64,000 bases of DNA from an uncultured Eubacteriales bacterium (GTDB lineage: Bacteria > Bacillota > Clostridia > Oscillospirales > CAG-382), in NCBI GenBank assembly GCA_934446675.1, contig CAKSEL010000010.1, forward strand, positions 19,861 through 83,860, given 5' to 3'. Shown one piece after another: positions 1-53,802 of this stretch. Numbering within the stretch: the stretch's first letter is position 1; each line of letters begins with the position of its first letter. The notes under the pieces were generated by a model. That model did no database searches and was not told where the DNA came from. It saw only the letters and a list, made by a program, of their open reading frames with translations. A program made the position numbers and the translations under genes.

Positions 1-660
1 ATTCTCCAACTTTTCGACGGCGAAAAAGTTGCACTCTACTAAAGAGCGTAAACAAAAGCCGTTCGCGGCTCAGACGCCGCCGCGAAAGCGTGGCTACGGG
101 AGGATTTCACTCTAAAGAGTGTAAACGCCTACCGCAACTAACTACCCCTCCGAAATTTCAAAAACTCTCGTTTTGCACTTGTCCACATTGCTGTGTTGCG
201 AAATCGCCGCGCGACAGGCGCGCGGATATGGGGTTCTGTACGAAGTCAAACCATTTTGGAAAAAGTGTTATTTTTTATATTCTCCGACAGTCAACAGGAC
301 TCGCTTTTCTGCTCAGCTCGCTTACGCGAGATGACTTTTACAAATGTTAGTTTTTTGTTTCACGGGCGCGGAGTGAAAAATTCGGTTCTGTTTCGCCGGT
401 GCAAAGTTAAATACCGCATAAATTTCGGTTTCTGCGAAACAATTTCACTCACCAAAGTTCCCCATAGCACACAGTTTCCATAGTTTACTCACGCACCTGT
501 TTACATCTGAGTCAGCCGCCTGCCTTTTGGTGGCTGACGGTACAAGCTGGCGGCAGAGAGTATCCCGTAGCCTTTTCCTTATTTAAGGGCTTACTTGTTT
601 TTCTTTGCAGCTTTCTTTTTAAAAAGAAAGCGCGTATTCTTTTTCGGCGTAGTTGTATCT
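1..660 (-). repeat. Mosaic intergenic repeat, copy 1 (minus orientation, cut by window edge)
   Basis: The reverse complement aligns module-for-module with 4682-5348. Modules: A palindrome 610-631, hairpin B allele iii 511-538, hairpin C 317-330, hairpin D 207-225, hairpin E 62-86, F-variant hairpin 8-30. Its 5' end lies just after the stop (679-681) of the minus-strand M23 gene. Confidence 0.9.
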
Positions 661-678
661 ATGTTTCACGTGAAACAT

Positions 679-4681: not shown

Positions 4682-4699
4682 GGGTACGCAAGAATACGC

Positions 4700-4721
4700 G
4701 CTTTCTTTTTAAAAAGAAAGC
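4700..4721 (+). other. Module A: 22-bp perfect palindrome GCTTTCTTTTTAAAAAGAAAGC
   Basis: Identical palindrome at 610-631, 17386-17407, 20539-20560, 22735-22756, 27601-27622, 31915-31936, 43055-43076, 46036-46057 and 52732-52753. It is always followed by TGCAAAGAAAAC. Confidence 0.95.
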
Positions 4722-4789
4722 TGCAAAGAAAACGGTAGCCCTTAATTTAGAAAAAGGCTATGGGATACTCCCTGCCGCCAGCTTGTTCC

Positions 4790-4818
4790 GTCCGCAGTCA
4801 AACAGCAGGACTGCGGAC
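4790..4818 (+). other. Module B hairpin (allele i): GTCCGCAGTC-N9-GACTGCGGAC
   Basis: Perfect 10-bp inverted repeat. The same position in other copies carries allele ii or iii (see findings). Confidence 0.9.
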
Positions 4819-4934
4819 TAAGATTATAAATAATGTGCCGAAGTAAACTATGGAAATTCAGTACAAAGGGTTGCTTTGGAAAGTGAAATTACTTTGCACC
4901 ACCCAAACAACAAACTAACATTTGTAAAAGTCAT

Positions 4935-4948
4935 CTCGCGTAAGCGAG
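4935..4948 (+). other. Module C hairpin: CTCGC-GTAA-GCGAG (GNRA-type loop)
   Basis: 5-bp stem with a GTAA loop, flanked by conserved AAAGTCAT and CTGGGCAGAAAA. Confidence 0.85.
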
Positions 4949-5040
4949 CTGGGCAGAAAAGTGAGTCCTGTTGACTGCGTGATTATATAGAAAATAACAC
5001 TTGCGCCGAATTGGGTTTAACTTCGTACAGAACCCCATAT

Positions 5041-5059
5041 CCGCGCGCCTGTCGCGCGG
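5041..5059 (+). other. Module D hairpin (allele a): CCGCGCG-CCTGT-CGCGCGG
   Basis: 7-bp all-GC stem between conserved CCCCAT and CGATTT. Confidence 0.85.
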
Positions 5060-5179
5060 CGATTTCGCGGCACAGTTTCAGGGACATTGCGAAACGAGGA
5101 TTTTTGAGCTTTCGGGGGCGTATTTGGTTTCGGTGCGCGTTTACACTCTTTAGAGTGAAATCCTCCACGTAGCCGCGCT

Positions 5180-5204
5180 TTCGCTGCGGCGTTTGAGCGG
5201 CGAA
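5180..5204 (+). other. Module E hairpin: TTCGCTGC-GGCGTTTGA-GCGGCGAA, followed by a T-rich tract
   Basis: 8-bp stem with one U.G pair. It is followed by AAAATCTTTTGTTT, which makes it the most terminator-like hairpin inside the element. Confidence 0.8.
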
Positions 5205-5231
5205 AATCTTTTGTTTACACTCTTTAGAGCG

Positions 5232-5256
5232 CGACTTTTTCGATTCCGAAAAGTCG
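5232..5256 (+). other. Module F hairpin: CGACTTTTTCG-ATTC-CGAAAAGTCG (start of a Z unit)
   Basis: The core CTTTTCGATTCCGAAAAG recurs about 19 times in the window (by eye), always followed by GAATAGAGTTGCACATGGAAGTGAAT..CCGTTTCCGCCC or a variant. Confidence 0.9.
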
Positions 5257-5348
5257 GTGTATAGACTTGCACATAGCAGTGAATTATCTCTTTCCGCCCA
5301 AAACAGGCAACAATCACTCCCCCAATGTAGAAGAAAGGAGCAGAACAC

Positions 5349-10751: not shown

Positions 10752-12230
10752 ATGAACTATTACAGCACGCGCGATCTTAACAGAACAAAGCCTCTCACTT
10801 CCGCAGAGGCGATAAAGAAAGGTCTTGCCGACGACGGAGGACTTTACCTGCCCGAAAGCATACCGCAGATTGACCTTGATTTTATAAAGAGCTTATCCTC
10901 TCTTTCATACAGCGAGAGGGCGGCAAAAATATTATCGCTTTATCTTACGGACTACACCTATGACGAACTTCTCGACTGCGCAAAGGGCGCATATGAAAGC
11001 GGATTTGACGGATATGCCGCGCCCGTGAGCATGCTTATAGGAGACGATCTGCGCGTACTTGAGCTGTGGCACGGTCCCACCTGTGCATTCAAGGACATGG
11101 CACTCCAGATAATGCCTCGACTTCTTTCTCTCGCACTCAAAAAGACGGGAGAAAAGCGCACCGCGCTGATACTTGTCGCAACAAGCGGAGATACCGGAAA
11201 GGCAGCGCTTGAGGGTTACAAGGACATTGACGGCATAAAGATAACGGTATTTTATCCCGAAGACGGCGTAAGCCGTATGCAGAAGCTCCAAATGACGACG
11301 CAAGAGGGTTCAAACGTAAAGGTATGTGCGATAAAGGGCAACTTTGACGACGCACAGACCGGCGTAAAAAAGATATTCTCGTCGGAAAGCATAAGAAAAG
11401 AGCTTGACGGAAAAGGAATATTCCTCTCCAGCGCAAACTCCATAAACTGGGGCAGACTTGCACCGCAGATAGTTTATTACATTTCGGCGTATGCGGATCT
11501 TGTCGAACAGGGCAACATAAAGCTCGGCGAGCAGGTTGATATAACCGTTCCGACCGGAAACTTCGGCAACATATTCGCAGCCTTTCTTGCAAAGCGCATG
11601 GGACTTCCGGTAGGACGTTTTATCTGCGCCTCCAACAGCAACAACATACTTACGGATTTTCTCACCACCGGAACATACGACAGAAACCGCAGATTTTACA
11701 CGACGATTTCTCCGTCCATGGACATACTCATTTCGTCAAACCTTGAAAGACTGCTTTATTTCACGGCAGGCGCGCAAAAGGTATGCGAATACATGAAATC
11801 TCTTTCGGAAACCGGAAAATACACGGTTGACGCCGAAGTATTCGACGCGATAAAGTCAGATTTCAGCGCATATTACTGCACCGAAGAAAACTGCAAAAAG
11901 ACAATATCCGACGTATTCGGAAAATACTCGTATCTTATAGATCCTCACACTGCCGTTGCAGTATATGCGGCGCACAGATTTGTCGAGGAAAACCGCACCG
12001 GAAGAAAGAACATAGTAGCGTCAACCGCAAGTCCCTACAAGTTTGCAATCGACGTACTCAAAGCGCTCGGACAGACTGCGCCCGAAAACGATTTTGACGT
12101 ATTGAAGGCACTTTCCGAGTACAGCAAGACCGACATTCCCACTCCTCTTGCGGCGCTTTCGGGCAAGACAGTGAGATTTACTCAGTCTATCGAAAAGAAT
12201 CCGGAGGATCTTGCAAAGGCGATGCTGTGA
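10752..12230 (+). CDS. thrC: Threonine synthase
   Basis: 492-aa ORF with the PLP-lysine motif WHGPTCAFKDMALQ. Long-form ThrC architecture. Confidence 0.95.
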   Translation: MNYYSTRDLNRTKPLTSAEAIKKGLADDGGLYLPESIPQIDLDFIKSLSSLSYSERAAKILSLYLTDYTYDELLDCAKGAYESGFDGYAAPVSMLIGDDLRVLELWHGPTCAFKDMALQIMPRLLSLALKKTGEKRTALILVATSGDTGKAALEGYKDIDGIKITVFYPEDGVSRMQKLQMTTQEGSNVKVCAIKGNFDDAQTGVKKIFSSESIRKELDGKGIFLSSANSINWGRLAPQIVYYISAYADLVEQGNIKLGEQVDITVPTGNFGNIFAAFLAKRMGLPVGRFICASNSNNILTDFLTTGTYDRNRRFYTTISPSMDILISSNLERLLYFTAGAQKVCEYMKSLSETGKYTVDAEVFDAIKSDFSAYYCTEENCKKTISDVFGKYSYLIDPHTAVAVYAAHRFVEENRTGRKNIVASTASPYKFAIDVLKALGQTAPENDFDVLKALSEYSKTDIPTPLAALSGKTVRFTQSIEKNPEDLAKAML

Positions 12231-12257
12231 GAACAGGAGGCGGTGATTTTTGACCGG

Positions 12258-12338
12258 TTTGGGCGGGAAAAGATAATTCACTGCCACTTGCAATTCTATA
12301 CACCGACTTTTCGGAATCGAAAAAGTCGCGCTCTTTAG
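12258..12338 (-). repeat. Mosaic repeat copy 3a: isolated Z unit in reverse orientation
   Basis: The reverse complement reads GCGCGACTTTTTCGATTCCGAAAAGTCGGTGTATAGAATTGCAAGTGGCAGTGAATTATCTTTTCCCGCCCAAA. Hairpin F lies at 12304-12328. Confidence 0.9.
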
Positions 12339-12394
12339 TTTTATGTTTAGTTGGCGAAAGAGTGCAAGTCTGATAAAACTTAATACAAAAATAT

Positions 12395-12433
12395 ACTCTG
12401 TGCATTGTTCTACAACTTTGCACAGAGTTTTTC
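12395..12433 (+). terminator. Rho-independent terminator candidate (thrC), unique sequence
   Basis: ACTCTGTGCA (12395-12404) pairs with TGCACAGAGT (12419-12428): a perfect 10-bp stem with a 14-nt loop, followed by TTTTC. It lies between repeat fragments 3a and 3b. Confidence 0.7.
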
Positions 12434-12439
12434 TATACA

Positions 12440-12995
12440 TAAAAGTAGAATTTGATCCAAGTTTCTTGCCGATAGGCAAGCTGGGCAGAAAAACGTGTCC
12501 TGTTGACTGCGTAATAACTCGAAAAAATTACTTTTTTCACCTAAAATTAAGTTTACGCAGACCGCAGCGTGACATGGCGTAAGAGATAGAGCTGAGATAA
12601 ACAAATTTTACTTAGAAACCAACCCCATCGAGCAGTGCGGAGCATCTGCGAGCGAAAATTTAAAACTTCGGAGGTGCGGGAAAGTTTTACCGACGATAGT
12701 TTGATGTGTGGAAAGGAAGCCGCGCTTTCGCTGCGGCGTTTGAGCGGCGAAAATCTTTTGCGACTTTTTCGATTCCGAAAAGTCGGAAGAATAGAGTTGC
12801 ACATGGAAGTGAATTATTCTTTTTCGCCCAAAACAAGCGTCAGTTAGATAAACACAAAGTATCTTTTCTACTTTTCGATTCCGAAAAGTCGGAGAATAGA
12901 GCTGCACATGGCAGTGAATTAAAATTTCTCGCCCAAAATAAGCAACAGCCAGCCAAGCACAAAACATCTTTCCGCCCAACCTCCCTGCTCTCTTT
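12440..12995 (+). repeat. Mosaic repeat copy 3b: 5'-truncated copy (from module C onward)
   Basis: Hairpin C variant CTTGCCGATAGGCAAG at 12465-12480, then CTGGGCAGAAAA..CCTGTTGACTG, module V, D allele b, S3 spacer, E hairpin and two Z units. Confidence 0.9.
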
Positions 12996-13021
12996 TTAAG
13001 ATAGAAAAACTCAAATTTCCC

Positions 13022-13050
13022 TTGACGAAAAAACTAAAAAATAGTATAAT
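13022..13050 (+). promoter_or_regulatory. Sigma-A-type promoter candidate for the lipid-kinase/Fur/DHHW genes
   Basis: TTGACG (13022-13027), a 17-nt spacer, then TATAAT (13045-13050). A second TATAAT lies at 13052-13057, and the sequence is unique, just 3' of repeat copy 3b. Confidence 0.65.
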
Positions 13051-13083
13051 GTATAATGTAAAATTGTATAGGGAGGAATATGC

Positions 13084-15818: not shown

Positions 15819-15855
15819 ATGAATTGTGGGTTATTTTGGATTGAGTTATGCTTGG

Positions 15856-15990
15856 TTTGGGTGAAAAAAGATAATTCACTGCCACTTGCAAGTCTATTCT
15901 CCAACTTTTCGATTCCGAAAAGCGGAGATACAAAGCTGCACTTTGAAGAATATTTCCCATTTCCGCCCAAACAAGCAACAATCAACCAAA
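15856..15990. repeat. Mosaic repeat copy 4: two Z units head-to-head around one F hairpin
   Basis: TTTGGGTGAAAAAAGATAATTCACTGCCACTTGCAAGTCTATTCTCCAA, then CTTTTCGATTCCGAAAAG (15905-15922), then CGGAGATACAAAGCTGCACTTTGAAGAATATTTCCCATTTCCGCCCAAA. The left arm is a reversed Z and the right arm a forward Z. Confidence 0.85.
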
Positions 15991-17358: not shown

Positions 17359-18268
17359 AAACATTTTCGCCGAAGAAGAATACGCGCTTTCTTTTTAAAA
17401 AGAAAGCTGCAAAGAAAACGGGGAACGCGCTTTTCTGAAGAAAAGCTGAGCGCTCTAAAGAGTGTAAACAAAAGACTTTCGTAGCCCTTAAATAAAAATA
17501 AAGCTGTTGGCAACTCTGTGCCGCCAGCTTGTACCGTTCGCAGTCGAACAGCAGGACTGCGAACTCAAATCTAAGCAGGTGCCGAAGTAAACTATGGAAG
17601 TTGTGTACTATTGGTAACTTTGAAAAGTGAAACCCCTTTGCAACAGCGAAATAAAGTAAAAATTTCACTTCGCACCCGCGAAACAAAAACTAACATTTGT
17701 AAAAGTCATCTTGCCGTAGGCAAGCTGGGCAGAAAAATTTGTCCTGTTGACTGTTTGAATATATTAAGAGTAACATTCTTGCCAAAATAGTTTAACTTCG
17801 TACAGAACCCCATATCCGCGCGTCAGTCGCGCGGCGATTTTGCCGTAAGTTACACGGACGTACCGTAGTAGCAAGGCGGTCACGCTTGTGAGAATAATAG
17901 AGGTGAGAAAAGCTGTGTTTCGGGCAAAATCCTTCCGTCGGGGGATTGTCAAGGGGCGAGTAGTCCCTTGAACGGCTTTTCGACCACTTTTCGCCGCCGA
18001 AAAGTGCATATTTAAAGTTGCACTTTGAAGAATATAACCCGTTTCAGCTCAAAATAATCTGAAGTCAGCCACACGCAAGTGTAGTTCGCTTTCGCGGCGG
18101 CGTTTGAGCCGCGAAAATCTTTTGTCATTTATCCTCGCAGGGGACTTTTTCGATTCCGAAAAGTGAGAGAATAGAGTTGCAATTAGAAGTGAGTTATCCT
18201 TTTTAACCCAAAATAAGTAACACTCAGCCAAACAAAAAGTATTAAAAAATTTTGAAAAAAGAATATAG
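17359..18268 (+). repeat. Mosaic intergenic repeat, copy 5 (910 bp)
   Basis: A palindrome 17386-17407, a 60-bp insertion at 17421-17480, hairpin B allele ii 17536-17564, hairpin C allele ii 17710-17724, D allele a variant, S2-like spacer and two Z units. Confidence 0.93.
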
Positions 18269-20506: not shown

Positions 20507-21285
20507 GGACGCGAAGGGGAACGCGCTGAAGGTTACGCGCTTTCTTTTTAAAAAGAAAGCTGCAAAGAAAACGGTAGCCCCTAATTTAGAAAAGAATTGT
20601 TGGATACTCTCTGCCTCCGGCTTGTACCGTCAGCCACCAAAAGTCAGGCGGCTGACTTAAATGTGAACAATGGTGCCGAAGCAAGCTATGGAAATTCAGT
20701 ACAAATGGTTGCTTTGAAAAGTGAAATAATTACGCACCGACGAAACACAAAACTAATACTTGTAAAAGTCATCTTGCCGTAGGCAAGATGGGCAGAAAAA
20801 TGAGTCCTGTTGACTGTTGGAGAATATAAAAAATAACACTTTTTCCGAAATGGTTTGAGTTTGTACAAACCCCATTATCGAGCAGTGCGGAGCATCTGCG
20901 AGCGATTTTGCCGTAGGTTGTGTGGACGCACCGTAGTAACAAGTGGTCACTTTGGTAAAAGCGGTTGAGGGGTAGAAATCCGAGTTCAAGGCAAAATCCC
21001 CCACGTAGCCACGCTTTCGCGGCGGCGTTTGAGCCGCGAAAATCTTTTGTAACTTTTTCGATTCCGAAAAGTTAGAGAATAGAGTTGCACATGGCAGTGA
21101 ATAACCCGTTTCCGCTCAAACAGGCAAAAATCAGCCAAACAAAAAACATCTTTCAGCTTTTCTACTTAGAAAAGCGTCAGTATAAAGTCGCACTTTGAAA
21201 AAAGTAACCCGTTTCCGCCCAAAAAAAAGTAAGTAAAATTTAAATATTTACCCAAAATTTAAGAAGAAGAAAAGGAGAATTTTCC
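20507..21285 (+). repeat. Mosaic intergenic repeat, copy 6 (779 bp)
   Basis: A palindrome 20539-20560, hairpin B allele iii 20629-20656, C allele ii, D allele b, S2, E hairpin 21016-21040, F hairpins at 21051-21073 and 21156-21175. Confidence 0.93.
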
Positions 21286-22695: not shown

Positions 22696-23565
22696 AGAAT
22701 ACGAAGGGGTACGAAGGGGTACGCAAGAATACGCGCTTTCTTTTTAAAAAGAAAGCTGCAAAGAAAACGGTAGCCCTTAAATAAGAAAAAAGCTGTGGGA
22801 TATTCTCTGCCGCCAGCTTGTTCCGTCCGCAGTCGAACAGCAGGACTGCGGACTAAGATGTAAACAGGTGCATGAGTAAACTATGGAAACTGTGTGCTAA
22901 GGGTAGCTTTGGAAAGTGAAATTGCTCCGCACTATCTAAACATAAAACTAAAATTCAGCAAAGTCATCTCGCGTAAGCGAGCTGGGCAGAAAAATAAGTC
23001 CTGTTGACTGTGTAATAACAGTAAAAATTAACATTTGCGCACCCAAAATAAAGTTTACGCAGACCGCGGCGTGACATGACGTAAAACTTGGCATTATGTC
23101 AACCAATCCATGTTCAGATACCAACCCCATCGAGCAGTGCGGAGCATCTGCGAGCGAAGATTGCAAACTTCGGAGGCGCGGAAAAAGCTTTACCGACGAT
23201 AGTTAGATGTGTGGAGAAGAAGCCGCGCTTTCGCTGCGGCGTTTGAGCGGCGAAAATCTTTTGTCATTTATCCTCGCAGGGGACTTTTTCGATTCCGAAA
23301 AGTGAGAGAATAGAGTTGCAGGTGGAAGTGGATAATCCGTTTTCGCCAAAAATAAGTGAAAATCAGCCACACGCAAGTGTAGTTCGCTTTCGCTGCGGCG
23401 TTTGAGCGGCGAAAATCTTTTGTTTACACTCTTTAGAGCGCCCGTCTTTTCGATTCCGAAAAGCGGAGATATAGGGTTGCACATGGAAGTGAATAATCAA
23501 TGTGGCACAAAAATATTCATTCCTCCTAAACTAATCAAAAATCACCCCAAAAAGGAATAAAAAAT
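22696..23565 (+). repeat. Mosaic intergenic repeat, copy 7 (870 bp)
   Basis: Four tandem TACG decamers (22697-22736), A palindrome 22735-22756, hairpin B allele i 22825-22853, C, V, D allele b, S3 and two E+F+Z units. Confidence 0.93.
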
Positions 23566-25445: not shown

Positions 25446-27569
25446 ATGGCAATGGAGAAATTTTACAGGCATAATAACCTTAAACTTCACTTTTCGGGAG
25501 AAACCGGAAGTGCGTTCGGCATGAAAAGACTTGAGACTGCCGATATGGAAAACGATAACCGCGAAGCAGAACCCAAAGCGCCGTTTATTCTGAGAACGGA
25601 TAATTTCAATGTCAATATGGAGGGCTGCGCAAGTATAGTTCCGGGTACGGAAAAGCTTGTAAACAGCATCGAGGATAAGGACGGAGTTACGCTCGTGTAT
25701 GAAAAGGGCGGACTTGAAATAACCGCAGTGCTTAAATATACAGACGGTGCTGACGTTGTAAGACAGACCGTTACCGTAAAGAATACGTCGGATAAGACTC
25801 AGAAACTCACTCATGTTTCAAGTGCGCTCATAAACGGACTTTGCACCGGAGGTCTGCTTAAAATTCATGATAAGAGAAAGGTCAAGGTTCATTACTGCCT
25901 GTCGCATTGGCAGGGAGAGGCTCAGTGGAGAACTTCAAACCTTGTCGATCTCGGAATTTATCATAAGACCGCGCACGCATGGGATACAATGGGATTCCGC
26001 GTAAGCTCGACAGGTTCGTGGAGCACGGGAAGATATTATCCTCTTGTAATGCTTGAGGACGCGGAATGCGGCAAGATCTGGTATATGGAGCTTGAGGGCG
26101 CATATGACTGGACAATAGAAGTCGGAAATGAAAACGGAAAAGACGGCGGCATGCTGTTTATGGAGGCAAACTGCGCAGATCAGAATCAGAACGGCTTTGT
26201 TTACGATCTTAAACCCGGAGAGAGCTATACCGCGCCGTCCTGCGTTTACGGCTGTACGACCGGCGGCTTTGACGAGGCTGTAAGAGAACTGCTCAAATAT
26301 AAGAGAGCGACGACAAAGGGACATTGGGACGCAGAAACTCCCGCTTGTTTCAATGACTATATGGACTGTATCTGGGGACAGCCCAGCCGCGAAAAGCTTG
26401 TTCCGCTCATAGACGCCGCGTCAAAAGCCGGCTGTGAGGTTTTCTGCATGGACGCAGGCTGGTACATAGGCTCGAACGGTCTTTGGCAGGTCGATAACAG
26501 TAAATACGGCGAAGGCGGACTTGCCGGAATTATAGATTATATAAAGCAGAAAAAAATGATACCCGGAATATGGCTTGAAATTGAGTCTATAACCAAAGGA
26601 ACGCCGCTTTATCAAAAGGATCTGCTGCTTTGCAGAAACGGCGAGATAGTAAATCCCGACAGAGCAAATGCGGACTTTACGAGAAAACCGGTTCGCGACT
26701 ATATTATGGGCGTGTTCGATATGCTCTACGGTATGGGTATACGCTTTGTAAAGAACGATTATAATATGTCCGTAATGTTGGGTTCCGATAAGGACGGCGA
26801 TTGCCCGGCAGAGGGACTGCGCAAGACGACAGACGCATTCTATTCGTTTATAGACGAAGTTAAGGCAAAGTACCCCGATCTCAAAATTGAAAACTGCGGC
26901 AGCGGAGCCATGAGATGCGATAACGGTACGCTTTCGCACTTTGAACTTCAGAGCACAAGCGACCAGGAATTTTATTATAATAATACCTCTATAATTTCCG
27001 GAACTCTCGCATACCTCGCACCCGAAAAGGCAGGTATCTGGTCTTATCCTTATCCGGTAAGCTTCTATGAAAACCGCGATAAAATAAATGTCTGGGAAAA
27101 TAAGGATTATGTCGCACAGCGCGCCGACGGCGAAGAAACCGTTTATAATATGGTCAACGCTCTTATGGGTACGCTCTATCTCTCCGGCAGAATAGAACAC
27201 GCAGATAAAAAGAACTTTGCACTCGTTAAAGAGGGCGTAAAGGCGTTTAAAAAGTACCGTAAACATAATGCGTCGGCTCACCCAGTGTGGCCCTGCGGTG
27301 TGTTTAACCTCGGCGACGATAGCTTTACAAGCCTCGGTCTTGTTGATGAAAAGAATAAGAAAATGACTCTCGCCGTGTGGAGACTTAATTCGTCCGAAGA
27401 TACTATCGTTGTAGATCTCTCTAAGTACCTTGCCGCAAACAGTAAAGTATCTCTCGCTTATCCCTCCGATCCTATGGGCGCTGAATTCGTATATAATCCT
27501 TTCTCTAAACTCCTTACCGTTAAACTCCCTAAACGCTGCTCCGCAAGATTCTTTGAAATAAGAATATAG
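25446..27569 (+). CDS. Alpha-galactosidase (GH36)
   Basis: FVKNDYNM and ENCGSGAMRCD motifs, ~700 aa. ATG 25452 has better SD spacing than ATG 25446. Confidence 0.85.
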   Translation: MAMEKFYRHNNLKLHFSGETGSAFGMKRLETADMENDNREAEPKAPFILRTDNFNVNMEGCASIVPGTEKLVNSIEDKDGVTLVYEKGGLEITAVLKYTDGADVVRQTVTVKNTSDKTQKLTHVSSALINGLCTGGLLKIHDKRKVKVHYCLSHWQGEAQWRTSNLVDLGIYHKTAHAWDTMGFRVSSTGSWSTGRYYPLVMLEDAECGKIWYMELEGAYDWTIEVGNENGKDGGMLFMEANCADQNQNGFVYDLKPGESYTAPSCVYGCTTGGFDEAVRELLKYKRATTKGHWDAETPACFNDYMDCIWGQPSREKLVPLIDAASKAGCEVFCMDAGWYIGSNGLWQVDNSKYGEGGLAGIIDYIKQKKMIPGIWLEIESITKGTPLYQKDLLLCRNGEIVNPDRANADFTRKPVRDYIMGVFDMLYGMGIRFVKNDYNMSVMLGSDKDGDCPAEGLRKTTDAFYSFIDEVKAKYPDLKIENCGSGAMRCDNGTLSHFELQSTSDQEFYYNNTSIISGTLAYLAPEKAGIWSYPYPVSFYENRDKINVWENKDYVAQRADGEETVYNMVNALMGTLYLSGRIEHADKKNFALVKEGVKAFKKYRKHNASAHPVWPCGVFNLGDDSFTSLGLVDEKNKKMTLAVWRLNSSEDTIVVDLSKYLAANSKVSLAYPSDPMGAEFVYNPFSKLLTVKLPKRCSARFFEIRI

Positions 27570-28282
27570 TTTTTGTCCCGAAGGGGTACGAGGAATACGC
27601 GCTTTCTTTTTAAAAAGAAAGCTGCAAAGAAAACGGTAGCCCTTAAATAAGAATAGAATTGTGGGATACTCCCTGCCGCCAGCTTGTTCCGTCCGCAGTC
27701 AAACAGCAGGACTGCGGACTCAGATATAAATAAGGTGCCGAAGTAAACTATGGAAATTGTGTACGGACGATAACTTTGAAAAGTGAAATTGCTCCGCACC
27801 AACAAAACAAAAAACTAACATCTGTAAAAGTCATCTCGCGCAAGCGAGCTGGGCAGAAAAACGAGTCCTGTTGACTGTGAAATAGCTCAAAAAAATTACT
27901 TTTTTGCACCCAAAATAAAGTTTACGCAGACCGCAGCGTGACATGGCATAAAAATCCGGAATTATGTCAACTAAACCGTGTTTAGATACCAACCCCATCG
28001 AGCAGTGCGGAGCATCTGCGAGCGATGATAGAGAATTTCGGAGGTGCGCGGAGGCTTTACCGACAATAGTTTGATGTGTGGAAACATAGCCACGCTTTCG
28101 CGGCGGCGTTTGAGCCGCGAAAATCTTTTGTTTACACTCTTTAGAGCGCGACTTTTTCGATTCCGAAAAGTCGGAGAATAAAGCTGCAAGTGGCAGTGAA
28201 TAATCCGTTTCCTCCTAAACTTAAGAAACAATCAGCCCAAATAATCAGTACCCTGAAAAAAGTAGAGAAAGGAAGATACCCG
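27570..28282 (+). repeat. Mosaic intergenic repeat, copy 8 (713 bp)
   Basis: A palindrome 27601-27622, hairpin B allele i 27691-27719, hairpin C with GCAA loop 27835-27848, V, D allele b, S3 and one E+F+Z unit. It ends GAAAGGAAGATACCCG just before TTG 28283. Confidence 0.93.
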
Positions 28283-31895: not shown

Positions 31896-32730
31896 GGAGT
31901 ACGCAGGAGAACGCGCTTTCTTTTTAAAAAGAAAGCTGCAAAGAAAACAATAGCCCCTAATTTAGAAAAGAATTGTGGGATACTCTCTGCCGCCAGCTTG
32001 TACCGTCCGCAGTCAAACAGCAGGACTGCGGACTAAGATGTAAACAGGTGCGTGAGTAAACTATGGAAATTGTGTACTAATGGCAGCTTTGGAAAGTGAA
32101 ATAATTACGCACAAACGAAATAAATCCCAAATTTCACTTTGCACCCACGAAACAAAAAACTAAAATTCAGCAAAGTCATCTCGCGTAAGCGAGCTGGGCA
32201 GAAAAACGAGCCCTGTTGACTGCAAAATAACTTGAGAAAATTACTTTTTTGCACTCGAAATAAAGTTTACGCAGACCGTAACGTGACATGGCATAAAAGT
32301 TTGGCATTATGTCAACTAAACCGTGTTTAGATACCAACCCCATCGAGCAGTGCGGAGCATCTGCGAGCGATTTCGCCGTAGGTTACGTGGACGCACCGTA
32401 GTAACAAGTGGTCGTTTTGGTAAGGGTTTTGGAGGGGAAGAATGTGCGTTTAGGGCGAAATCCTCCACGTAGCCACGCTTTCGCGGCGGCGTTTGAGCCG
32501 CGAAAATCTTTTGTTACCTTTTCGATTCCGAAAAGTAAGCATATAAAGTCGCACTTTGAAGAAAGTAATCCGTTTCCGCCCAAACCAAGCAAAAATAAGC
32601 CAAACGTAAAACATCTTTTCACTTTTCGATTCCGAAAAGAGGAGATATAAGGTTGCAATTGGAAGTGAATGTCCCGCTTCAGCCCAAAATAATCAAAAAA
32701 AGAAAATAGAAGAAGAAAAGAGGAGTCCCC
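31896..32730 (+). repeat. Mosaic intergenic repeat, copy 9 (835 bp)
   Basis: A palindrome 31915-31936, hairpin B allele i 32005-32033, C, V, D allele b, S2, E and two Z units. It ends AAGAGGAGTCCCC just before GTG 32731. Confidence 0.93.
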
Positions 32731-33756
32731 GTGAAGTTCTCGGTAGTAGGAATCCAGCACCCGCATATATACGGAATGACAAGTGAACTTGTCGCACATG
32801 GCGCAGAACTCGTCTCGGCGTATGATAGCGATAAGATAGCACTTGACGCGTTCGTAAAAAAGTACCCGGGCGTAAAGCCGGTAAGATGCGAAGAAGAAAT
32901 ACTTGAAGATAAAAATGTTCAGCTCGTGGCAGGCGCCGCCGTTACGTCCGAAAGAGCCGATATAGGTATACGCACAATGAACGCAGGTAAAGATTATTTT
33001 ACCGATAAAGGTCCGTTTACGTCGTTTGAACAGCTTGAAAGAGTAAAGCAGACAGTAAAGCAGACCGGAAAAAAGTATATGGTTTGTTATAGCGAAAGAC
33101 TTCAGAATTCAAGCGCTGAAATGGCAGGAATGATGATAAAGCGCGGAGATATAGGAAAAGTCGTTCAGGTCGTAAGTATGGGACCGCACAGACTTAACGC
33201 AAAGTCAAGACCGGAGTGGTTCTGGCAAAAAGAAAAGTTCGGCGGTATACTCGATGATATATGCTCGCATCAGTTTGAACAGTTTTTGTATTTCACAGGC
33301 GCAGATAAGGCAAGCGTGGTTTCGGCAAGAGTCGAAAACTTCGCACACCCCGAGTACCCCGAATTTGAAGATTTCGGTGAAGCAAGCCTTGTCGCCGATA
33401 ACGGGGCGTCGGGATACGTAAAGGTCGATTGGTTCACACCCGACGGACTTGATACGTGGGGCGACGGCAGAGCTTTTGTAATAGGCACGGACGGATATAT
33501 CGAACTCAGAAAAACCATAGATATATGCGGAAGACCGGGTGCAAATCACCTGTTTGTGACTACAAATAAGCAAAAAACAACGTATGTTGACGCAAATTCT
33601 TTCGGACACCCGTTCTTTGACGCGTTTATAAAGGACTGCCAAGAACGTACCGAAAACGCAATGACTCAGGAACACGTCTGGGAGAGCGCAAGACTTACGC
33701 TTGAAGCTCAGCAAAAAGCCGATGAATTCAGAAAAAAACTAAAAAATATGCTTTAA
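32731..33756 (+). CDS. Gfo/Idh/MocA-family oxidoreductase
   Basis: 341 aa. Family-level resemblance by eye (N-terminal Rossmann-like half, C-terminal alpha/beta domain). GTG start. Confidence 0.8.
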   Translation: MKFSVVGIQHPHIYGMTSELVAHGAELVSAYDSDKIALDAFVKKYPGVKPVRCEEEILEDKNVQLVAGAAVTSERADIGIRTMNAGKDYFTDKGPFTSFEQLERVKQTVKQTGKKYMVCYSERLQNSSAEMAGMMIKRGDIGKVVQVVSMGPHRLNAKSRPEWFWQKEKFGGILDDICSHQFEQFLYFTGADKASVVSARVENFAHPEYPEFEDFGEASLVADNGASGYVKVDWFTPDGLDTWGDGRAFVIGTDGYIELRKTIDICGRPGANHLFVTTNKQKTTYVDANSFGHPFFDAFIKDCQERTENAMTQEHVWESARLTLEAQQKADEFRKKLKNML

Positions 33757-37241: not shown

Positions 37242-37640
37242 AGGGAGTTCCTCTTTTCTTCTTCTTTTCTTTGATTTATGTTGGGCTTGTTTTCTTTTGT
37301 TTTGGGCGGAAATTGGTTAGTCACTGCCATGTGCAAGCGTATACCTCCGCTTTTCGGAATCGAAAAGACGGGCAAAAGATTTTCGCGGCTCAAACGCCGC
37401 CGCGAAAGCGTGGCTTTATTTTCCACACAAAATTGTATCGTCGGAAAAACATCTTCGCGCCCCCGAAGTCTGCAATCTTCGCTCGCAGACGCTCCGCGCT
37501 GCTCGATATGGGGTTCTGTACAAAGCTAAACTATTTCGGGGAAAGTGTTATTTTTTATATACTCATGCAGTCAACAGGACACACTTTTACGACCAGCTCG
37601 CTGTCGCGAGATGACTACGGCTGAATTTTACTTTTGTGTT
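37242..37640 (-). repeat. Mosaic repeat copy 10a: 5'-truncated copy in minus orientation, 3' end at the polA start
   Basis: On the reverse strand: hairpin C (GACA loop) 37597-37610, D allele b, S3, E hairpin, F hairpin 37350-37367, Z core, then SD and the polA GTG. Confidence 0.9.
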
Positions 37641-37680
37641 TGGTAAACTAAACTTGCAAGTTCGCTCTAAAACGTAATAT

Positions 37681-38156
37681 ACCGCACCAAATTGCACTCA
37701 CAAAGACGTGACACGGCAGAAAAACAGTATTATGTCAACCAAGTCATTGCTAAGAAACCAACCCCATCGAGCAGTGCGAAGCATCTGCGAGCGATTTTGC
37801 CGTAGGTTATGTGGACGCACCGTAGTAACAAGTGGTCACTTTGGAAAAAGCGTTTGAGGGGTAAAAAGTCATGTTTAGGGCAAAATCCTCCACGTAGCCA
37901 CGCTTTCGCGGCGGCGTTTGAGCCGCGAACGGCTTTTGTTTACGCTCTTTAGAGTGCAACTTTTTCGCCGTCGAAAAGTTGGAGAATAGAGCTGCACATG
38001 GAAGTGGATTATCTTTTTAGCCCCAAATAAGCAACACTCAGCCAACCGCAGAACATCTTTCAGCTTTTCGATTCCGAAAAGCGTCGGTATAAAGTTGCAC
38101 TTTGAAGAAAATTCCCCGTTTCCGCCCAAATCGACCTCAAAATATCTTCAATCTTC
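37681..38156 (+). repeat. Mosaic repeat copy 10b: 5'-truncated copy in plus orientation
   Basis: Starts in module V, then D allele b, S2, E, F-variant hairpin 37957-37981, Z, and a second F+Z. It ends at the stop codon (38157-38159) of the minus-strand HD gene. Confidence 0.9.
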
Positions 38157-43022: not shown

Positions 43023-43399
43023 GGGTACGAAGGAGTACGCGCCGAAGAATACGCGCTTTCTTTTTAAAAAGAAAGCTGCAAAGAAAACAATAGCCCTTAA
43101 TTTAGAAAAAGGCTACGGGATACTCTGTGCCGCCAGCTTGTGCCGTCAGCCACCAAAAGTCGGGCGGCTGACTCAAATCTAAGCAGGTGCGTGAGTAAAC
43201 TATGGAAATTATGTGCTGACGGTGACTTTGGAAAGTGAAACTCTTTTGTCATTTATCCTCGCAGAGGACTTTTTCGATTCCGAAAAGTGAGTGTAGAAAG
43301 CTGCAAGCAGAAGTGAATTTCCCGTTTCCGCCAAAAATTAAGATATATTTCTCAAATTTTTAAGATACATTTTTCCCAAAAAAGAAAGGAAGAGTCCCG
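43023..43399 (+). repeat. Mosaic intergenic repeat, copy 11 (377 bp, internal deletion)
   Basis: A palindrome 43055-43076, hairpin B allele iii 43145-43172, and the 5' half of P3, joined directly to the linker TCATTTATCCTCGCAGAGG plus one F+Z unit. It ends GAAAGGAAGAGTCCCG just before ATG 43400. Confidence 0.92.
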
Positions 43400-46017: not shown

Positions 46018-46820
46018 GAGTACGCAAGAATACGCGCTTTCTTTTTAAAAAGAAAGCTGCAAAGAAAACAGTAGCCCTTAATTTAGAAAAGAATTGCGGA
46101 ATACTCTCTGCCGCCAGCTTGTACCGTTCGCAGTCGAACAGCAGGACTGCGAACTCAGATGTGAGCAGGTGCTGAAGTAAACTATGGAAATTTAGTACAA
46201 AGGGCAACTTTGGAAAGTGATATTACTTCGCACCACCCAAACATAAAACTAAAATTCAGCAAAGTCATCTCGCGTAAGCGAGTTGGGCGGAAAAACGAGT
46301 CCTGTTGACTGCATAATAACGCATAAGAATTGCATATTTGAGCCTTAAATATAGTTTACGCAGACCGCAACGTGACATGGCATAAAAGTTGAACTGTGTT
46401 AACCAATTTGAGCGTAGACACCAGCCCCATCGAGCAGTGCGGAGCATCTGCGAGCGATTTTGCCGTAGGTTACGTGGACGCACCGTAGTAACAAGTGGTC
46501 ACTTTAGAAAAATCGTTTGAGGGGTAGAAAGTCATGTTCAGGGCAAAATCCTCCACGTAGCCACGCTTTCGCTGCGGCGTTTGAGCGGCGAAAATCTTTT
46601 GCGACTTTTTCGATTCCGAAAAGTCGGTGAATAGACTTGCAAGTGACAGTGGATAATCCTTTTCCGCCTAAAATAATCAAAATTTGATTAAACATAAAAC
46701 ATCTTTCAGCTTTTCTCCGTAGAAAAGCGTCAGTATAGGGTTGCACATGGAAGTGGATTATCCGTTTCCGCCCAAACCAAGAAACAATCAGCCAAGAAAA
46801 AAGAAAGGAAGTCTCTCACC
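46018..46820 (+). repeat. Mosaic intergenic repeat, copy 12 (803 bp)
   Basis: A palindrome 46036-46057, hairpin B allele ii 46126-46154, C, V, D allele b, S2, E (U.G allele) and two Z units. It ends GAAAGGAAGTCTCTCACC just before GTG 46821. Confidence 0.93.
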
Positions 46821-47030
46821 GTGGAACTTAAAGCCTTCGGCGTAGGCGATACGCTGAATATGAAAAAACCGCACGCGTGTGATTCAAAATCAAAAAAGAT
46901 GCTCGTGCTCATGGCAGGCAGTGACGTAAAAGTGCGCTGTGAGGGCTGCGGACGTGAGATGATCCTGCCGAGAGTTAAACTCGAAAGAAGTATAAAAAGC
47001 GTTACCCGAAAGGAAGACATGAATGTTTGA
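46821..47030 (+). CDS. DUF951-family small protein
   Basis: 69 aa. [37 protein letters not shown] matches the DUF951 pattern by eye. GTG start. Confidence 0.75.
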
Positions 47031-50421: not shown

Positions 50422-51292
50422 AGTACGCAGGAATACGCGCTTTATAGGGGTACGCGCTTTTCTGAAGAAAAGCTGAGCGCTCTAAAGAGTGTAAACAAAA
50501 GACTTTCGTAGCCCTTAAATAAGAAAAGAATTGTGGGATACTCCCTGCCGCCAGCTTGTACCGTTCGCAGTCAAACAGCAGGACTGCGAACTCAGATGTA
50601 AACAGGTGCGTGAGTAAACTATGGAAATTCAGTACAAAGGGTAGCTTTTGAAAGTGAAATTACTCCGCACCTACGAAACAACAAACTAACATTTGTAAAA
50701 GTCATCTTGCCGTAGGCAAGCTGGTCGGAAAAGTTAGTCCTGTTGACTGTGAAATAACAGAAAAAGTTAACACTTGCGCACCTCAAATAAAGTTTACGCA
50801 GACCGCAACGTGACATGGCGTAAAACTTGGCATTATGTCAACCAACTTGTGTGTAGATGCCAGCCCCATCCGCGCGCCTGTCGCGCGGCGATTTTGCCGT
50901 AAGCTACACGGACGTACCATAGTAGCAAGGCGGTCGCATTTGTAAGGATAATAAAGGTGAAAAAAGCCATGTTCAGGGCAAAATCCTCCACGTAGCCACG
51001 CTTTCGCGGCGGCGTTTGAGCCGCGAAAATCTTTTGCCTTTTATCCTCGCAGGGGACTTTTTCGATTCCGAAAAGAGGGGGAATAGGGTTGCACATGGCA
51101 GTGAATTATCTTTTCTCGCCAAAATAAGCAACAGCTAGCCAAACACCAAACATCTTTCAGCTTTTCTCCGTAGAAAAGCGTCAGTACAAAGTTGCACTTT
51201 GAAGAATATTTCCCGTTTCCGCCCAAATAGGCAACAATCAACCAATCAAAAACTAAAAAATTATATAGAATCTCAGAAAGAAGATGTAAAAT
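50422..51292 (+). repeat. Mosaic intergenic repeat, copy 13 (871 bp)
   Basis: TACG decamers. The A palindrome is replaced by the insertion variant (hairpin 50456-50473, inverted 27-mer 50475-50501). Then hairpin B allele ii 50563-50591, C allele ii, V, D allele a, S2, E and two Z units. Confidence 0.93.
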
Positions 51293-52702: not shown

Positions 52703-53802
52703 GGAATAGATAGGGATTACGAGGGATACGCGCTTTCTTTTTAAAAAGAAAGCTGCAAAGAAAACGGTAGTCCTTAATTTAGAAAAGAATTGTGGGATAC
52801 TCTCTGCCGCCAGCTTGTACCGTCCGCAGTCGAACAGCAGGACTGCGGACTAAGATAAAAACAGGTGCCAAAGCAAGCTATGGAAATTGTGTGCTGAAGG
52901 TGGCTTTGGTGAGTGAAACCGTTTCGCAACAATGAAATAAAGTAAAAATTTCACTTTGCGCCGACGAAACAGAACCGAATTTTCGCTCCGCACCGACGGA
53001 AACAATAAACTAAAATTCAGCAAAGTCATCTCGCGTAAGCGAGCTGGGTAGAAAAATGAGTCCTGTTGACTGCGAAATAACTTAAAAAAATTACTTTTTC
53101 GCACCTAAAATAAAGTTTACGCAGACCGCAGCGTGACATGGTACAAGAACTCGGCATTATGTCGACCAATTTGTGTTTAGAAACCAGCCCCATCCGCGCG
53201 CCTGTCGCGCGGCGATTTCGCGGCACAGTTTCAGGGACAGTGCGAAATGTGAGTTTTTGAAATTTCGGAGGCGTAAATGGTTTTGGTGCGCGTTTACACT
53301 CTTTAGAGTGAAATCCTCCACGTAGCCACGCTTTCGCGGCGGCGATTGAGCCGCGAACGGCTTTTGTTTACGCTCTTTAGAGTGCAACTTTTTCGCCGTC
53401 GAAAAGTTGGAGAATAGAGTTTCAAGTGGAAGTGAGTAATCCGTTCCCGCCAAAAACAGGTGAAAATCAGCCATACGCAAGTTTAGTTCGCTTTCGCGGC
53501 GGCGTTTGAGCCGCGAAAATCTTTTGTCATTTATCCTCGCAGGGGACTTTTTCGATTCCGAAAAGTGAGGAGAATAGACTTGCAAGTGGAAGTGAATTTC
53601 CCGTTTCCACCCAAAATAAGCAATACTCAGCCAAACAAAAAGTATCTTTTCGCTTTTCGATTCCGAAAAGTCGGTGAATAGAGTTGCACATGGAAGTGGA
53701 TTATCATTTTCCGCCCCAAAATAAGCAACACTCAGCCAAACCCGCAAACCTGTCCTGTGCAAAGAGAAAAAAGATATTAAAAGTTAGAAAGGAAGATCCC
53801 CG
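52703..53802 (+). repeat. Mosaic intergenic repeat, copy 14 (1100 bp, longest)
   Basis: A palindrome 52732-52753, hairpin B allele i 52822-52850, extended P3, C, V, D allele a, S1, then three Z units (F hairpins 53385-53409, 53546-53566, 53653-53670) with two E hairpins. It ends GAAAGGAAGATCCCCG just before GTG 53803. Confidence 0.93.

Follow-up and report, generated by a model that had tools for sequence, protein, structure and literature searches.

The 64-kb window analysed here (the whole stretch of 64,000 nucleotides from an uncultured Eubacteriales bacterium) carries a bulky mosaic repeat in its intergenic regions, and one module of this repeat is a small stem-loop, hairpin C, of 14-16 nt in total with a stem of 5-6 bp and a G(N)NA loop. 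On balance, we favour the view that hairpin C is a palindromic unit maintained by selection within a lineage-specific mosaic extragenic repeat (REP/BIME/BOX-like), that it folds on the sense strand, and that it probably forms a composite site with an A-tract and a 13-mer, GTCCTGTTGACTG, on its 3' side.

Stem pairing of hairpin C

The window was searched for hairpin C with a pattern made of its flanks only, the stem being left out of the pattern; 12 matches were found (Table 1), compared with 0.00 expected in shuffles. All 12 copies lie where the first-pass annotation of this DNA had placed them. The wider copy set was drawn from the window, whose own contig was also extended, from the uncultured Clostridiales metagenome-assembled genome (MAG) UMGS1387, which was identified in a genome-collection scan as a close relative (93-96% nucleotide identity in genes), and from gut metagenome contigs, 46 contigs of the same group having been added by a metagenome scan. 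No paper mentioning UMGS1387 was found in the literature. Searches with nhmmer and with a covariance model alike gave 99 copies of the C module (77 unique), which span 0.62 Mb of selected loci and include the 12 of the window. Stems and loops were counted by direct parsing of the 77 unique hairpin-plus-flank sequences, and linkage was determined on 84 unique longer sequences. MAFFT and covariance-model alignments misplace the 16-nt hairpin forms by one column; the extent of pairing is thereby underestimated in their per-pair values, and it is the direct parse that gives reliable counts.

The 77 unique copies fall into three stem types, namely type I (CTCGC/GCGAG, 41 copies), type II (CTTGCC/GGCAAG, 33 copies) and type III (CTCGCC/GGCGAG, occurring as CTCGCC-GTA-GGCGAG, 3 copies). 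A C-G to U-A switch made in both arms had been proposed for the window, and pair 3 is indeed either C-G or T-A in 12 of 12 window copies; the switch between types I and II is, however, wider than pair 3. Compared with type I, types II and III carry an inserted C and an A-to-G change that give rise to a sixth C-G pair, and type III is the intermediate. The first-pass annotation held that many single-arm changes breaking the stem would speak against the structure; across the wider set only three unique copies carry such a defect (one U.G, one C.A and one U.U).

Pair 3 of the 84 longer sequences is C-G in 49, T-A in 34 and C.A in 1, the two arms being concordant in 83 of 84. Its two bases, which stand 8-9 nt apart, are linked with an r2 of 0.95, whereas linkage between the 3' base of the pair and polymorphic sites only 4-8 nt further 3' is 0.00-0.03. 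Furthermore, types I and II share left-flank haplotypes (a-I 20, a-II 12, b-I 13 and b-II 8), and each of them was found with both right-flank variants and both downstream families. Since the arms have stayed complementary while their surroundings were shuffled, by recombination or by recurrent mutation, comparison of the copies demonstrated that the stem pairing of hairpin C is selected or that the hairpin is exchanged as a unit. The structure suggested by the earlier annotation was thus upheld, with linkage within pair 3 and free assortment with the flank haplotypes supporting a real stem. In the model-fitted alignment, 92.3% of cells were paired, a value reached by 0 of 500 shuffles, and slid partners gave 25-40%. 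RNAalifold applied to 52 longer copies recovered hairpin C as well as a second module, hairpin B. As a very small stem-loop with pairing under selection, or exchanged as a unit, hairpin C makes a clean example.

An alternative is that pairing as such is without function, the stem types being subfamily alleles of founder copies and the compensation a reflection of shared ancestry. Such a history would agree with the existence of three stem types with one switching pair, with the alignment count, in which one pair is changed on both sides, as in shuffles, and with a stem variability no greater than that of the conserved unpaired flanks. It is difficult to reconcile with the concordance and linkage of the two arms on common left-flank haplotypes, right flanks and downstream families, with the second coordinated change that makes the sixth C-G pair, or with the loop, whose middle bases are free to vary when those of the stem are not. 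Given the linkage pattern, pure shared ancestry is unlikely, and we attach very little weight to this explanation as a whole.

Two further pairings around hairpin C, an outer helix AGTCA/TGACT and a second hairpin GGGC/GTCC, appeared in single-sequence folds and were rejected; their positions were invariant or uncompensated, and their z-scores were not significant.

The flanks of hairpin C had been described as conserved. Their core pattern is present in the 12 window copies, but they are not uniform: CCAAGTTT and CGTAGTCAT were also seen on the 5' side, and CTGAGCAG, ATGGGCAG, TTGGGCGG, CTGGTCGG, CTGGTCGT and CTGGGTAG on the 3' side. In the 5' to 3' direction, hairpin C is followed by the A-tract AGAAAA(A) and then by GTCCTGTTGACTG, which occurs in 12 of 12 window copies (11 exact, one with GCCCTG). 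The sense strand continues 3' of the hairpin into CTGGGCAGAAAA and has no U-tract of the kind required of an intrinsic terminator; a terminator scan flagged hairpin C solely as a weak antisense candidate with the tail ATGACTTTTA.

Loop sequences and the folding strand

The loops of the 77 unique copies comprise 53 tetraloops (GACA 17, GTAA 16, GATA 11, GCAA 5, GTCA 2, AACA 1 and ACAA 1) and 24 triloops (GTA 20, GAA 3 and ATA 1), 23 of the latter being GNA. The closing pair is C-G in 77 of 77, the first loop base is G in 74 of 77 and the last is A in 77 of 77, and the middle positions vary among A, C and T. The statement that loops begin with G and end with A is consequently correct for the window and has few exceptions in the wider set. 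The proposal that they are GNRA loops was not borne out, because only 21 of the 53 tetraloops, or 21 of all 77 loops, have this form; the loops are better described as GNNA or GNA. Given that the G...A ends are conserved and the middle bases are free, the loop comparison showed that hairpin C folds as a single strand, and specifically on the gene-sense strand; loops on the opposite strand would read T...C.

RNA hairpins with GNRA tetraloops resemble hairpin C in the 21 of 77 unique copies whose GTAA or GCAA loop is closed by C-G. They differ from it in that 32 of the 53 tetraloops have C or T at loop position 3 (30 GNYA and 2 ANNA) and that 24 of the 77 loops are triloops. Neither a GNRA receptor nor a larger conserved RNA fold was found in the alignments of hairpin C copies.

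Extra-stable DNA mini-hairpins have the sequences GCGNNAGC and GCGNAGC (N standing for any of the bases) with a sheared G.A pair (PMC13037366); d(GNA) triloops depend on the closing pair (PMC3201870). The core of type I is exactly GCGNNAGC (GCGTAAGC, GCGCAAGC, GCGACAGC and GCGATAGC), and the cores of types II and III are of the form C-GNA-G (CCGTAGG and CCGAAGG), the second of these being identical to the mini-hairpin found in the priming signal ssiA (PMC13037366). Hairpin C thus follows the rule of a C-G closing pair, G and A loop ends and free N. The difference is that the mini-hairpin is a physico-chemical motif rather than a family of genetic elements, and that the natural examples cited for it, replication-priming sites and phage N4 promoters, are unlike the context of hairpin C. 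A fold computed with DNA parameters includes hairpin C, which is a prediction only and silent on the state in vivo. The earlier step from GNNA loops to RNA could therefore not be sustained: GNRA is not conserved, and the loops fit the DNA mini-hairpin rule equally well. Loops with G...A ends are no signature of RNA, because the same rule defines extra-stable DNA mini-hairpins.

RNA, single-stranded DNA or duplex site

We rated an RNA hairpin and a single-stranded DNA mini-hairpin about equally likely as the acting form of hairpin C. The RNA-level function proposed by the first-pass annotation is possible, and the pairing, the sense-strand loop and the gene orientation are all positive evidence, but they do not favour RNA over single-stranded DNA, and the argument from the loop was lost. 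With respect to orientation, the C module is co-oriented with the upstream gene in 59 cases and opposed to it in 7, the figures for the downstream gene being 46 and 22. Both minus-strand window copies lie among minus-strand genes, where GC skew is positive all the same. The sense strand doubles as the non-template strand and, where genes are co-directional, as the template for lagging-strand synthesis, so that co-orientation is compatible with single-stranded DNA too.

In its fuller form, the RNA proposal makes hairpin C part of a structured RNA, either a cis-regulator in a 3' untranslated or intercistronic region or a small RNA, in which a GNRA-type tetraloop takes part in tertiary contacts or protein binding. 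The maintained pairing, the G...A loop conserved on the sense strand and the 59:7 co-orientation with genes are what such an RNA would predict. The other modules are likewise sense-RNA-like: hairpin T followed by a T-run is terminator-like and its imperfections are six G.T and no A.C, and a possible extended -10, TGGGATACT, 5' of hairpin B would give a transcript of ~160 nt from hairpin B to hairpin T. However, hairpin T stands within ~120 nt 5' of hairpin C in 27 of 78 unique copies, which argues for less read-through into hairpin C, and with hairpin C directly 3' of it, hairpin C is outside the B-T unit. The asymmetry between G.U and A.C mismatches is mixed as well. Hairpin T (6:0) and P3 (3:0) point to the sense strand; hairpin C is at 1:1 (one U.G and one C.A), and a sense-strand A.C mismatch is fixed in hairpin B, whose CACC/GGCG forms retain it in ~20 copies, and in the GCCACG/CGCGGC reading. 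Added to the departures from GNRA and the triloops, a long-range helix first proposed by RNAalifold showed no covariation, the element is missing in relatives with conserved gene order, and some elements, such as 43023-43399, have no hairpin C. No Rfam family was matched; the whole window gave 0 matches at the gathering threshold, and a permissive search of one element gave chance-level hits with E above 1. We regard the structured RNA as a possible but rather doubtful explanation.

A second possibility is that hairpin C is a single-stranded DNA signal, in which the mini-hairpin (GCGNNAGC or CCGNAGG) and the 13-mer are recognised by an enzyme that acts on single-stranded DNA and drives the spread or reshuffling of modules. 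Candidate enzymes would be a HUH/Y1 transposase (as for REP/RAYT and the ends of IS200/IS605), a relaxase, a Rep-like nickase or a primase. The loop and closing-pair rules are those of the published DNA motif, including the CCGAAGG of ssiA (PMC13037366, PMC3201870), and the point at which orthologous loci swap sequence lies directly after the 13-mer. The element is lineage-specific, mosaic and strain-variable, and C modules belonging to subtypes c and d can stand head to head, ~90 nt apart, in REPIN/BIME-like doublets. Moreover, the gene-sense strand is at once the non-template strand and, wherever genes are co-directional, the template of lagging-strand synthesis. We nevertheless consider such a signal unlikely. 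Neither the window nor 194 kb of one MAG showed a transposase, whether Y1/HUH or of another kind, and no target-site rule and no clean excision or insertion junction was found. The GTAG tag is restricted to subtype d and stands 4 nt off the stem, and orientation tracks genes rather than GC skew, with both orientations side by side, unlike elements of the IS200/IS605 type.

Hairpin C might also be a duplex operator, with a dimeric regulator on the palindrome 5' of the A-tract and of a TTGACT -35 belonging to an element-borne promoter for the downstream gene. The order of hairpin, AGAAAA(A) and GTCCTGTTGACTG would suit this, with a -35-like TTGACT and an A-rich UP-like tract; so would the invariance of the unpaired 13-mer and the terminator-like hairpin just 5' in a third of copies, as expected where a new transcription unit starts. 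The promoter itself could not be found: no -10 stands at 16-19 nt in any downstream family, a manual search 3' of TTGACT in 75 downstream variants yielded none that was consistent at the right distance, and sigma-70 promoter scans around two elements, negative on this strand, gave no promoter. The half-sites vary in spacing (14, 15 or 16 bp), which a dimeric operator tolerates poorly, and the G...A loop ends are conserved on one strand only, which is unexpected for a symmetric duplex site. Moreover, units aim at the 3' ends of genes in convergent intergenic regions, and elements without hairpin C also precede genes. A duplex operator is accordingly very improbable in our judgement.

According to the reading that we prefer, hairpin C as a selection-maintained unit of the mosaic repeat, the repeat would have filled spacers between operons, and even inside them, in a single species group of uncultured gut Clostridiales that comprises the window genome, UMGS1387 and related contigs. 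Recombination would reshuffle modules between copies, hairpin C travelling as an intact complementary unit, and hairpin C, the A-tract and the 13-mer, 16 nt 3' of the hairpin, may form a composite site that is read single-stranded at each locus. As RNA, hairpin C could be a stem-loop in read-through or element-borne transcripts with a nuclease-resistant or processing role, as described for REP, BOX and ERIC; as DNA, it could form a mini-hairpin, on the non-template or lagging-template strand, through which the element recombines or propagates. For REP/BIME/REPIN units, both modes of action are on record, the RNA hairpin and the single-stranded DNA substrate (PMC3733652, PMC2817692, PMC3333891).

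Several observations count against this reading. The folding of hairpin C in context is not thermodynamically exceptional (z-scores of -0.5 to -1.9 as RNA and -1.0 to -2.1 as DNA). The unpaired 13-mer and AGTCAT are strongly conserved, which indicates that sequence-specific recognition matters besides pairing and would fit a double-stranded protein site too. No mobilising enzyme was found: the window contains neither RAYT nor Y1, and the 194 kb examined of one MAG are free of multi-copy genes. Finally, no target-site duplication and no clean pair of empty and filled sites was seen within the lineage, so that mobility is deduced solely from lineage-specific distribution and mosaicism.

The mosaic repeat and its modules

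The repeat that carries hairpin C occupies 13 intergenic regions of 377-1100 nt, adding up to ~10.5 kb or 16% of the window. This family of mosaic repeats is undescribed, very bulky and confined to a single lineage of gut Clostridiales, and the main interest lies there. The usual order of modules is the palindrome GCTTTCTTTTTAAAAAGAAAGC, hairpin B, a variable segment, hairpin C, the A-tract, the 13-mer, one of two unrelated downstream families, GC-rich palindromes and 1-4 tandem units of 103-105 nt. One short element has no hairpin C (Table 1), which makes hairpin C an optional module. The genes between the repeats are core housekeeping genes, encoding IMPDH, threonine synthase, a GyrA/ParC-like topoisomerase subunit, Dxr, PolA, SecA, a release factor, Sua5 and CoaE, and no transposase was seen among the window genes flanking the repeats. 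Collections of plasmids, phages and viral contigs held no match to the repeat. That one sixth of a stretch of core chromosome consists of a mosaic repeat missing in close relatives is unusual for a bacterial genome. The repeat will mislead gene callers, through spurious antisense open reading frames (ORFs) of 100-200 aa, as well as searches for structured-RNA motifs, and it will complicate metagenome assembly.

Table 1. Positions of hairpin C, the mosaic repeats and other modules in the 64-kb window
Feature	Position	Strand	Remarks
Hairpin C, type I, CTCGC-GTAA-GCGAG	4935-4948	+	copy of the first-pass annotation
Hairpin C, type I, GTAA loop	317-330	-
Hairpin C, type I, GTAA loop	22968-22981	+
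Hairpin C, type I, GTAA loop	32180-32193	+
Hairpin C, type I, GTAA loop	46269-46282	+
Hairpin C, type I, GTAA loop	53030-53043	+
Hairpin C, type I, CTCGC-GCAA-GCGAG	27835-27848	+
Hairpin C, type I, CTCGC-GACA-GCGAG	37597-37610	-	left-flank subtype d (CCGTAGTCAT)
Hairpin C, type II, CTTGCC-GTA-GGCAAG	17710-17724	+
Hairpin C, type II, CTTGCC-GTA-GGCAAG	20773-20787	+
Hairpin C, type II, CTTGCC-GTA-GGCAAG	50706-50720	+
Hairpin C, type II, CTTGCC-GATA-GGCAAG	12465-12480	+	left-flank subtype c; 37 nt 3' of hairpin T
Invariant 13-mer GTCCTGTTGACTG	4965-4977	+	16 nt 3' of hairpin C
Hairpin T, ACTCTGTGC...GCACAGAGT then TTTTCT	12395-12428	+	intrinsic-terminator-like; palindromic, T-rich tail on the other strand too
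Mosaic repeat	1-678	-	cut by window edge
Mosaic repeat	4682-5348	+	holds hairpin C of the first-pass annotation; palindrome A, hairpin B, hairpin C, 13-mer, variable modules, 104-nt unit
Mosaic repeat	12231-13083	+	inverted 104-nt unit first, then hairpin T, hairpin C and further modules
Mosaic repeat	17359-18268	+
Mosaic repeat	20507-21285	+
Mosaic repeat	22696-23565	+
Mosaic repeat	27570-28189	+
Mosaic repeat	31896-32730	+
Mosaic repeat	37242-38156	-	between minus-strand PolA and YfbR-like genes; GC skew still positive
Mosaic repeat, short	43023-43399	+	without hairpin C (palindrome A, partial hairpin B, 104-nt unit)
Mosaic repeat	46018-47022	+
Mosaic repeat	50422-51292	+
Mosaic repeat	52703-53802	+	longest; several tandem units
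IMPDH locus comparison	4682-5348		compared with L136, L137 and L138 at 11473-11620
Palindromic remnant, 190 nt	15819-15990		670-nt element with C module at the same place in L135 (3092-3764)
Palindrome GCTTTCTTTTTAAAAAGAAAGC	4700-4721, 610-631, 17386-17407, 20539-20560, 22735-22756, 27601-27622, 31915-31936, 43055-43076, 46036-46057, 52732-52753
Extended -10-like TGGGATACT	~4758-4768		5' of hairpin B; equivalents elsewhere
CTGCCGCCAGCTTGT	4771-4785		just 5' of hairpin B
GCGAGCTGGGCAG	4941-4956		3' arm of hairpin C plus flank CTGGGCAG
Hairpin B	4789-4817		equivalents in 9 other elements
GC-rich module GTAGCCRCGCTTTCGCKGCGGCGTTTGAGCSGCGAAAATCTTTTG	5150-5215		equivalents elsewhere
Tandem units	21051-21241, 32515-32706, 37958-38148, 51055-51245, 53356-53721		adjoin downstream gene start
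Antisense ORFs	4983-5348, 12608-12979, 27458-27805, 32383-32799, 53157-53762	-	105-201 aa, through repeats

The distribution of the repeat was examined at the IMPDH locus. Relatives whose IMPDH is 92, 90, 88 and 80% identical have 30-143 nt at the site of the window's 668-nt element. In the nearer three, the same genes follow IMPDH on its 3' side (an unknown protein, a response regulator and a histidine kinase) in a syntenic compact operon, and in L137 the gene order continues to peptidase M19 and ThrC. Searches by BLAST, nhmmer and covariance model found no repeat module in ~21 kb of each of the four relatives. Given that the modules are absent where gene order is conserved, the repeat family is a recent expansion specific to the lineage, in the course of which even an operon was split.

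Within the lineage, module content differs between strains of about 95% identity. The A-B-C part of the window element 4682-5348 is ~93% identical to that of the orthologous L041, and a different, paralogous module stands directly after the 13-mer. The 190-nt palindromic remnant, which corresponds to a 670-nt element in L135 (Table 1), is made up of two halves of the 104-nt unit, one inverted and one direct, which meet at the CTTTTCGATTCCGAAAAG hairpin; the two alleles differ throughout, indicating replacement and no simple deletion.

In mode of action, the repeat comes nearest to REP/BIME clusters and REPIN doublets, pneumococcal BOX elements and Neisseria NIME/Correia repeats (PMC3733652, PMC2817692, PMC3333891, PMC3049150). 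REP/BIME/REPIN sequences of Proteobacteria share with hairpin C their high copy number as extragenic palindromes in mosaic clusters with other motifs, complementary stems, strain-variable content, a location mostly 3' of co-oriented genes and head-to-head doublets. The differences are considerable. Hairpin C has 14-16 nt, whereas REP has 20-40 nt; the GTAG/CGTC tag is confined to subtype d (17 of 84 copies, 4 nt 5' of the stem), other subtypes having AAAG or CCAAG; and neither a RAYT gene in the window nor a multi-copy gene in the 194 kb of one MAG accompanies it. In addition, the composite measures 0.4-1.1 kb, has more than 10 module types and shows one dominant orientation relative to genes, and its host belongs to the Clostridiales, a phylum not listed for GTAG REPs (PMC3733652). 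Membership of hairpin C in the REP family is therefore not supported, the palindrome being too short, the tag mostly missing and no RAYT found. Pneumococcal BOX and Neisseria NIME/Correia elements are comparable as modular intergenic repeats with a fixed box order and a tandemly repeated middle unit, the 103-105-nt tandem units being the counterpart of boxB; BOX-type repeats share transcripts with the genes next to them and may bring along terminators or promoters (PMC3049150). In sequence, the repeat is not similar to these elements, and the present modules are longer and more numerous and take a higher share of the genome (~16% of the window).

It is conceivable, if quite unlikely, that the mosaic repeats are an undescribed class of non-autonomous Firmicutes element, "spacer cassettes" with their own terminator-like hairpin, a small-RNA-like unit (hairpin B to hairpin T) and gene-proximal units, which would insert harmlessly even inside operons and in which hairpin C and the 13-mer would be the recognition or cleavage site of a trans-acting enzyme working on single-stranded DNA. 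If the element is mobile or functional, REP/BIME/BOX-type biology would extend to gut Clostridiales on a much larger module scale.

The 22-nt perfect palindrome GCTTTCTTTTTAAAAAGAAAGC has 10 window copies that are 100% identical and far better conserved than their surroundings. It stands 10-40 nt past the upstream stop codon, without a T-run behind it, and might serve as a site for a protein or for processing.

Hairpin B has a 10-bp stem with four covarying pairs in the 52-copy alignment and at least four compensated stem types (GTCCGCAGTC/GACTGCGGAC, GTTCGCAGTC/GACTGCGAAC, GTCAGCCACC/GGCGGCTGAC and GTCCGACACC/GGCGTCGGAC). Just 5' of it lies CTGCCGCCAGCTTGT, a complement to GCGAGCTGGGCAG, which spans the 3' arm of hairpin C and its flank. 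The corresponding long-range helix was preferred by RNAalifold on 10 copies and was rejected, as it showed no covariation in ~57 copies and was not predicted with 52; its variable site is A-T in ~30, G-C in 6, G.T in ~10 and A.C in ~7. The complementarity may be the remnant of a terminal inverted repeat, as a MITE would have; a target-site duplication, the other hallmark of MITEs, was not seen. By sequence alone, the stretch of ~160 nt from TGGGATACT to hairpin T has the layout of a small-RNA gene (promoter, 5' hairpin and intrinsic terminator), hairpin T being present in L075, L085, L094, L101, L107, L109, L115, L120, L122 and L126.

Most C modules are single and co-oriented with genes, despite some doublets, in which C modules of subtypes c and d stand head to head around the palindromic hairpin T in convergent or divergent intergenic regions. 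Such doublets form a large imperfect palindrome, resembling a REPIN doublet, in L004 (4842-5747) and also in L006, L030, L097, L106, L131 and L114.

The antisense ORFs that run through the repeats are probably spurious and might be wrongly annotated as a protein family: they have no Pfam match and are similar only where the repeats are similar. A small ORF starting from AAACTATGGAAA was rejected too, since it is not conserved.

The tandem units of 103-105 nt, some of which reach ~160 nt, contain the hairpin CTTTTCGATTCCGAAAAG, then a TATAAAGTTGCAC-like sequence and GTTTCCGCCCAAA. They are the sole modules found in every element and may carry a gene-proximal promoter. The GC-rich module (GTAGCCRCGCTTTCGCKGCGGCGTTTGAGCSGCGAAAATCTTTTG) contains the mutually complementary motifs GCC[A/G]CG, CGC[G/T]GC and GC[C/G]GCG, which allow two alternative pairings and occur as two alleles; the second helix is followed by AAAATCTTTTG, and GTAG precedes the module in many copies.

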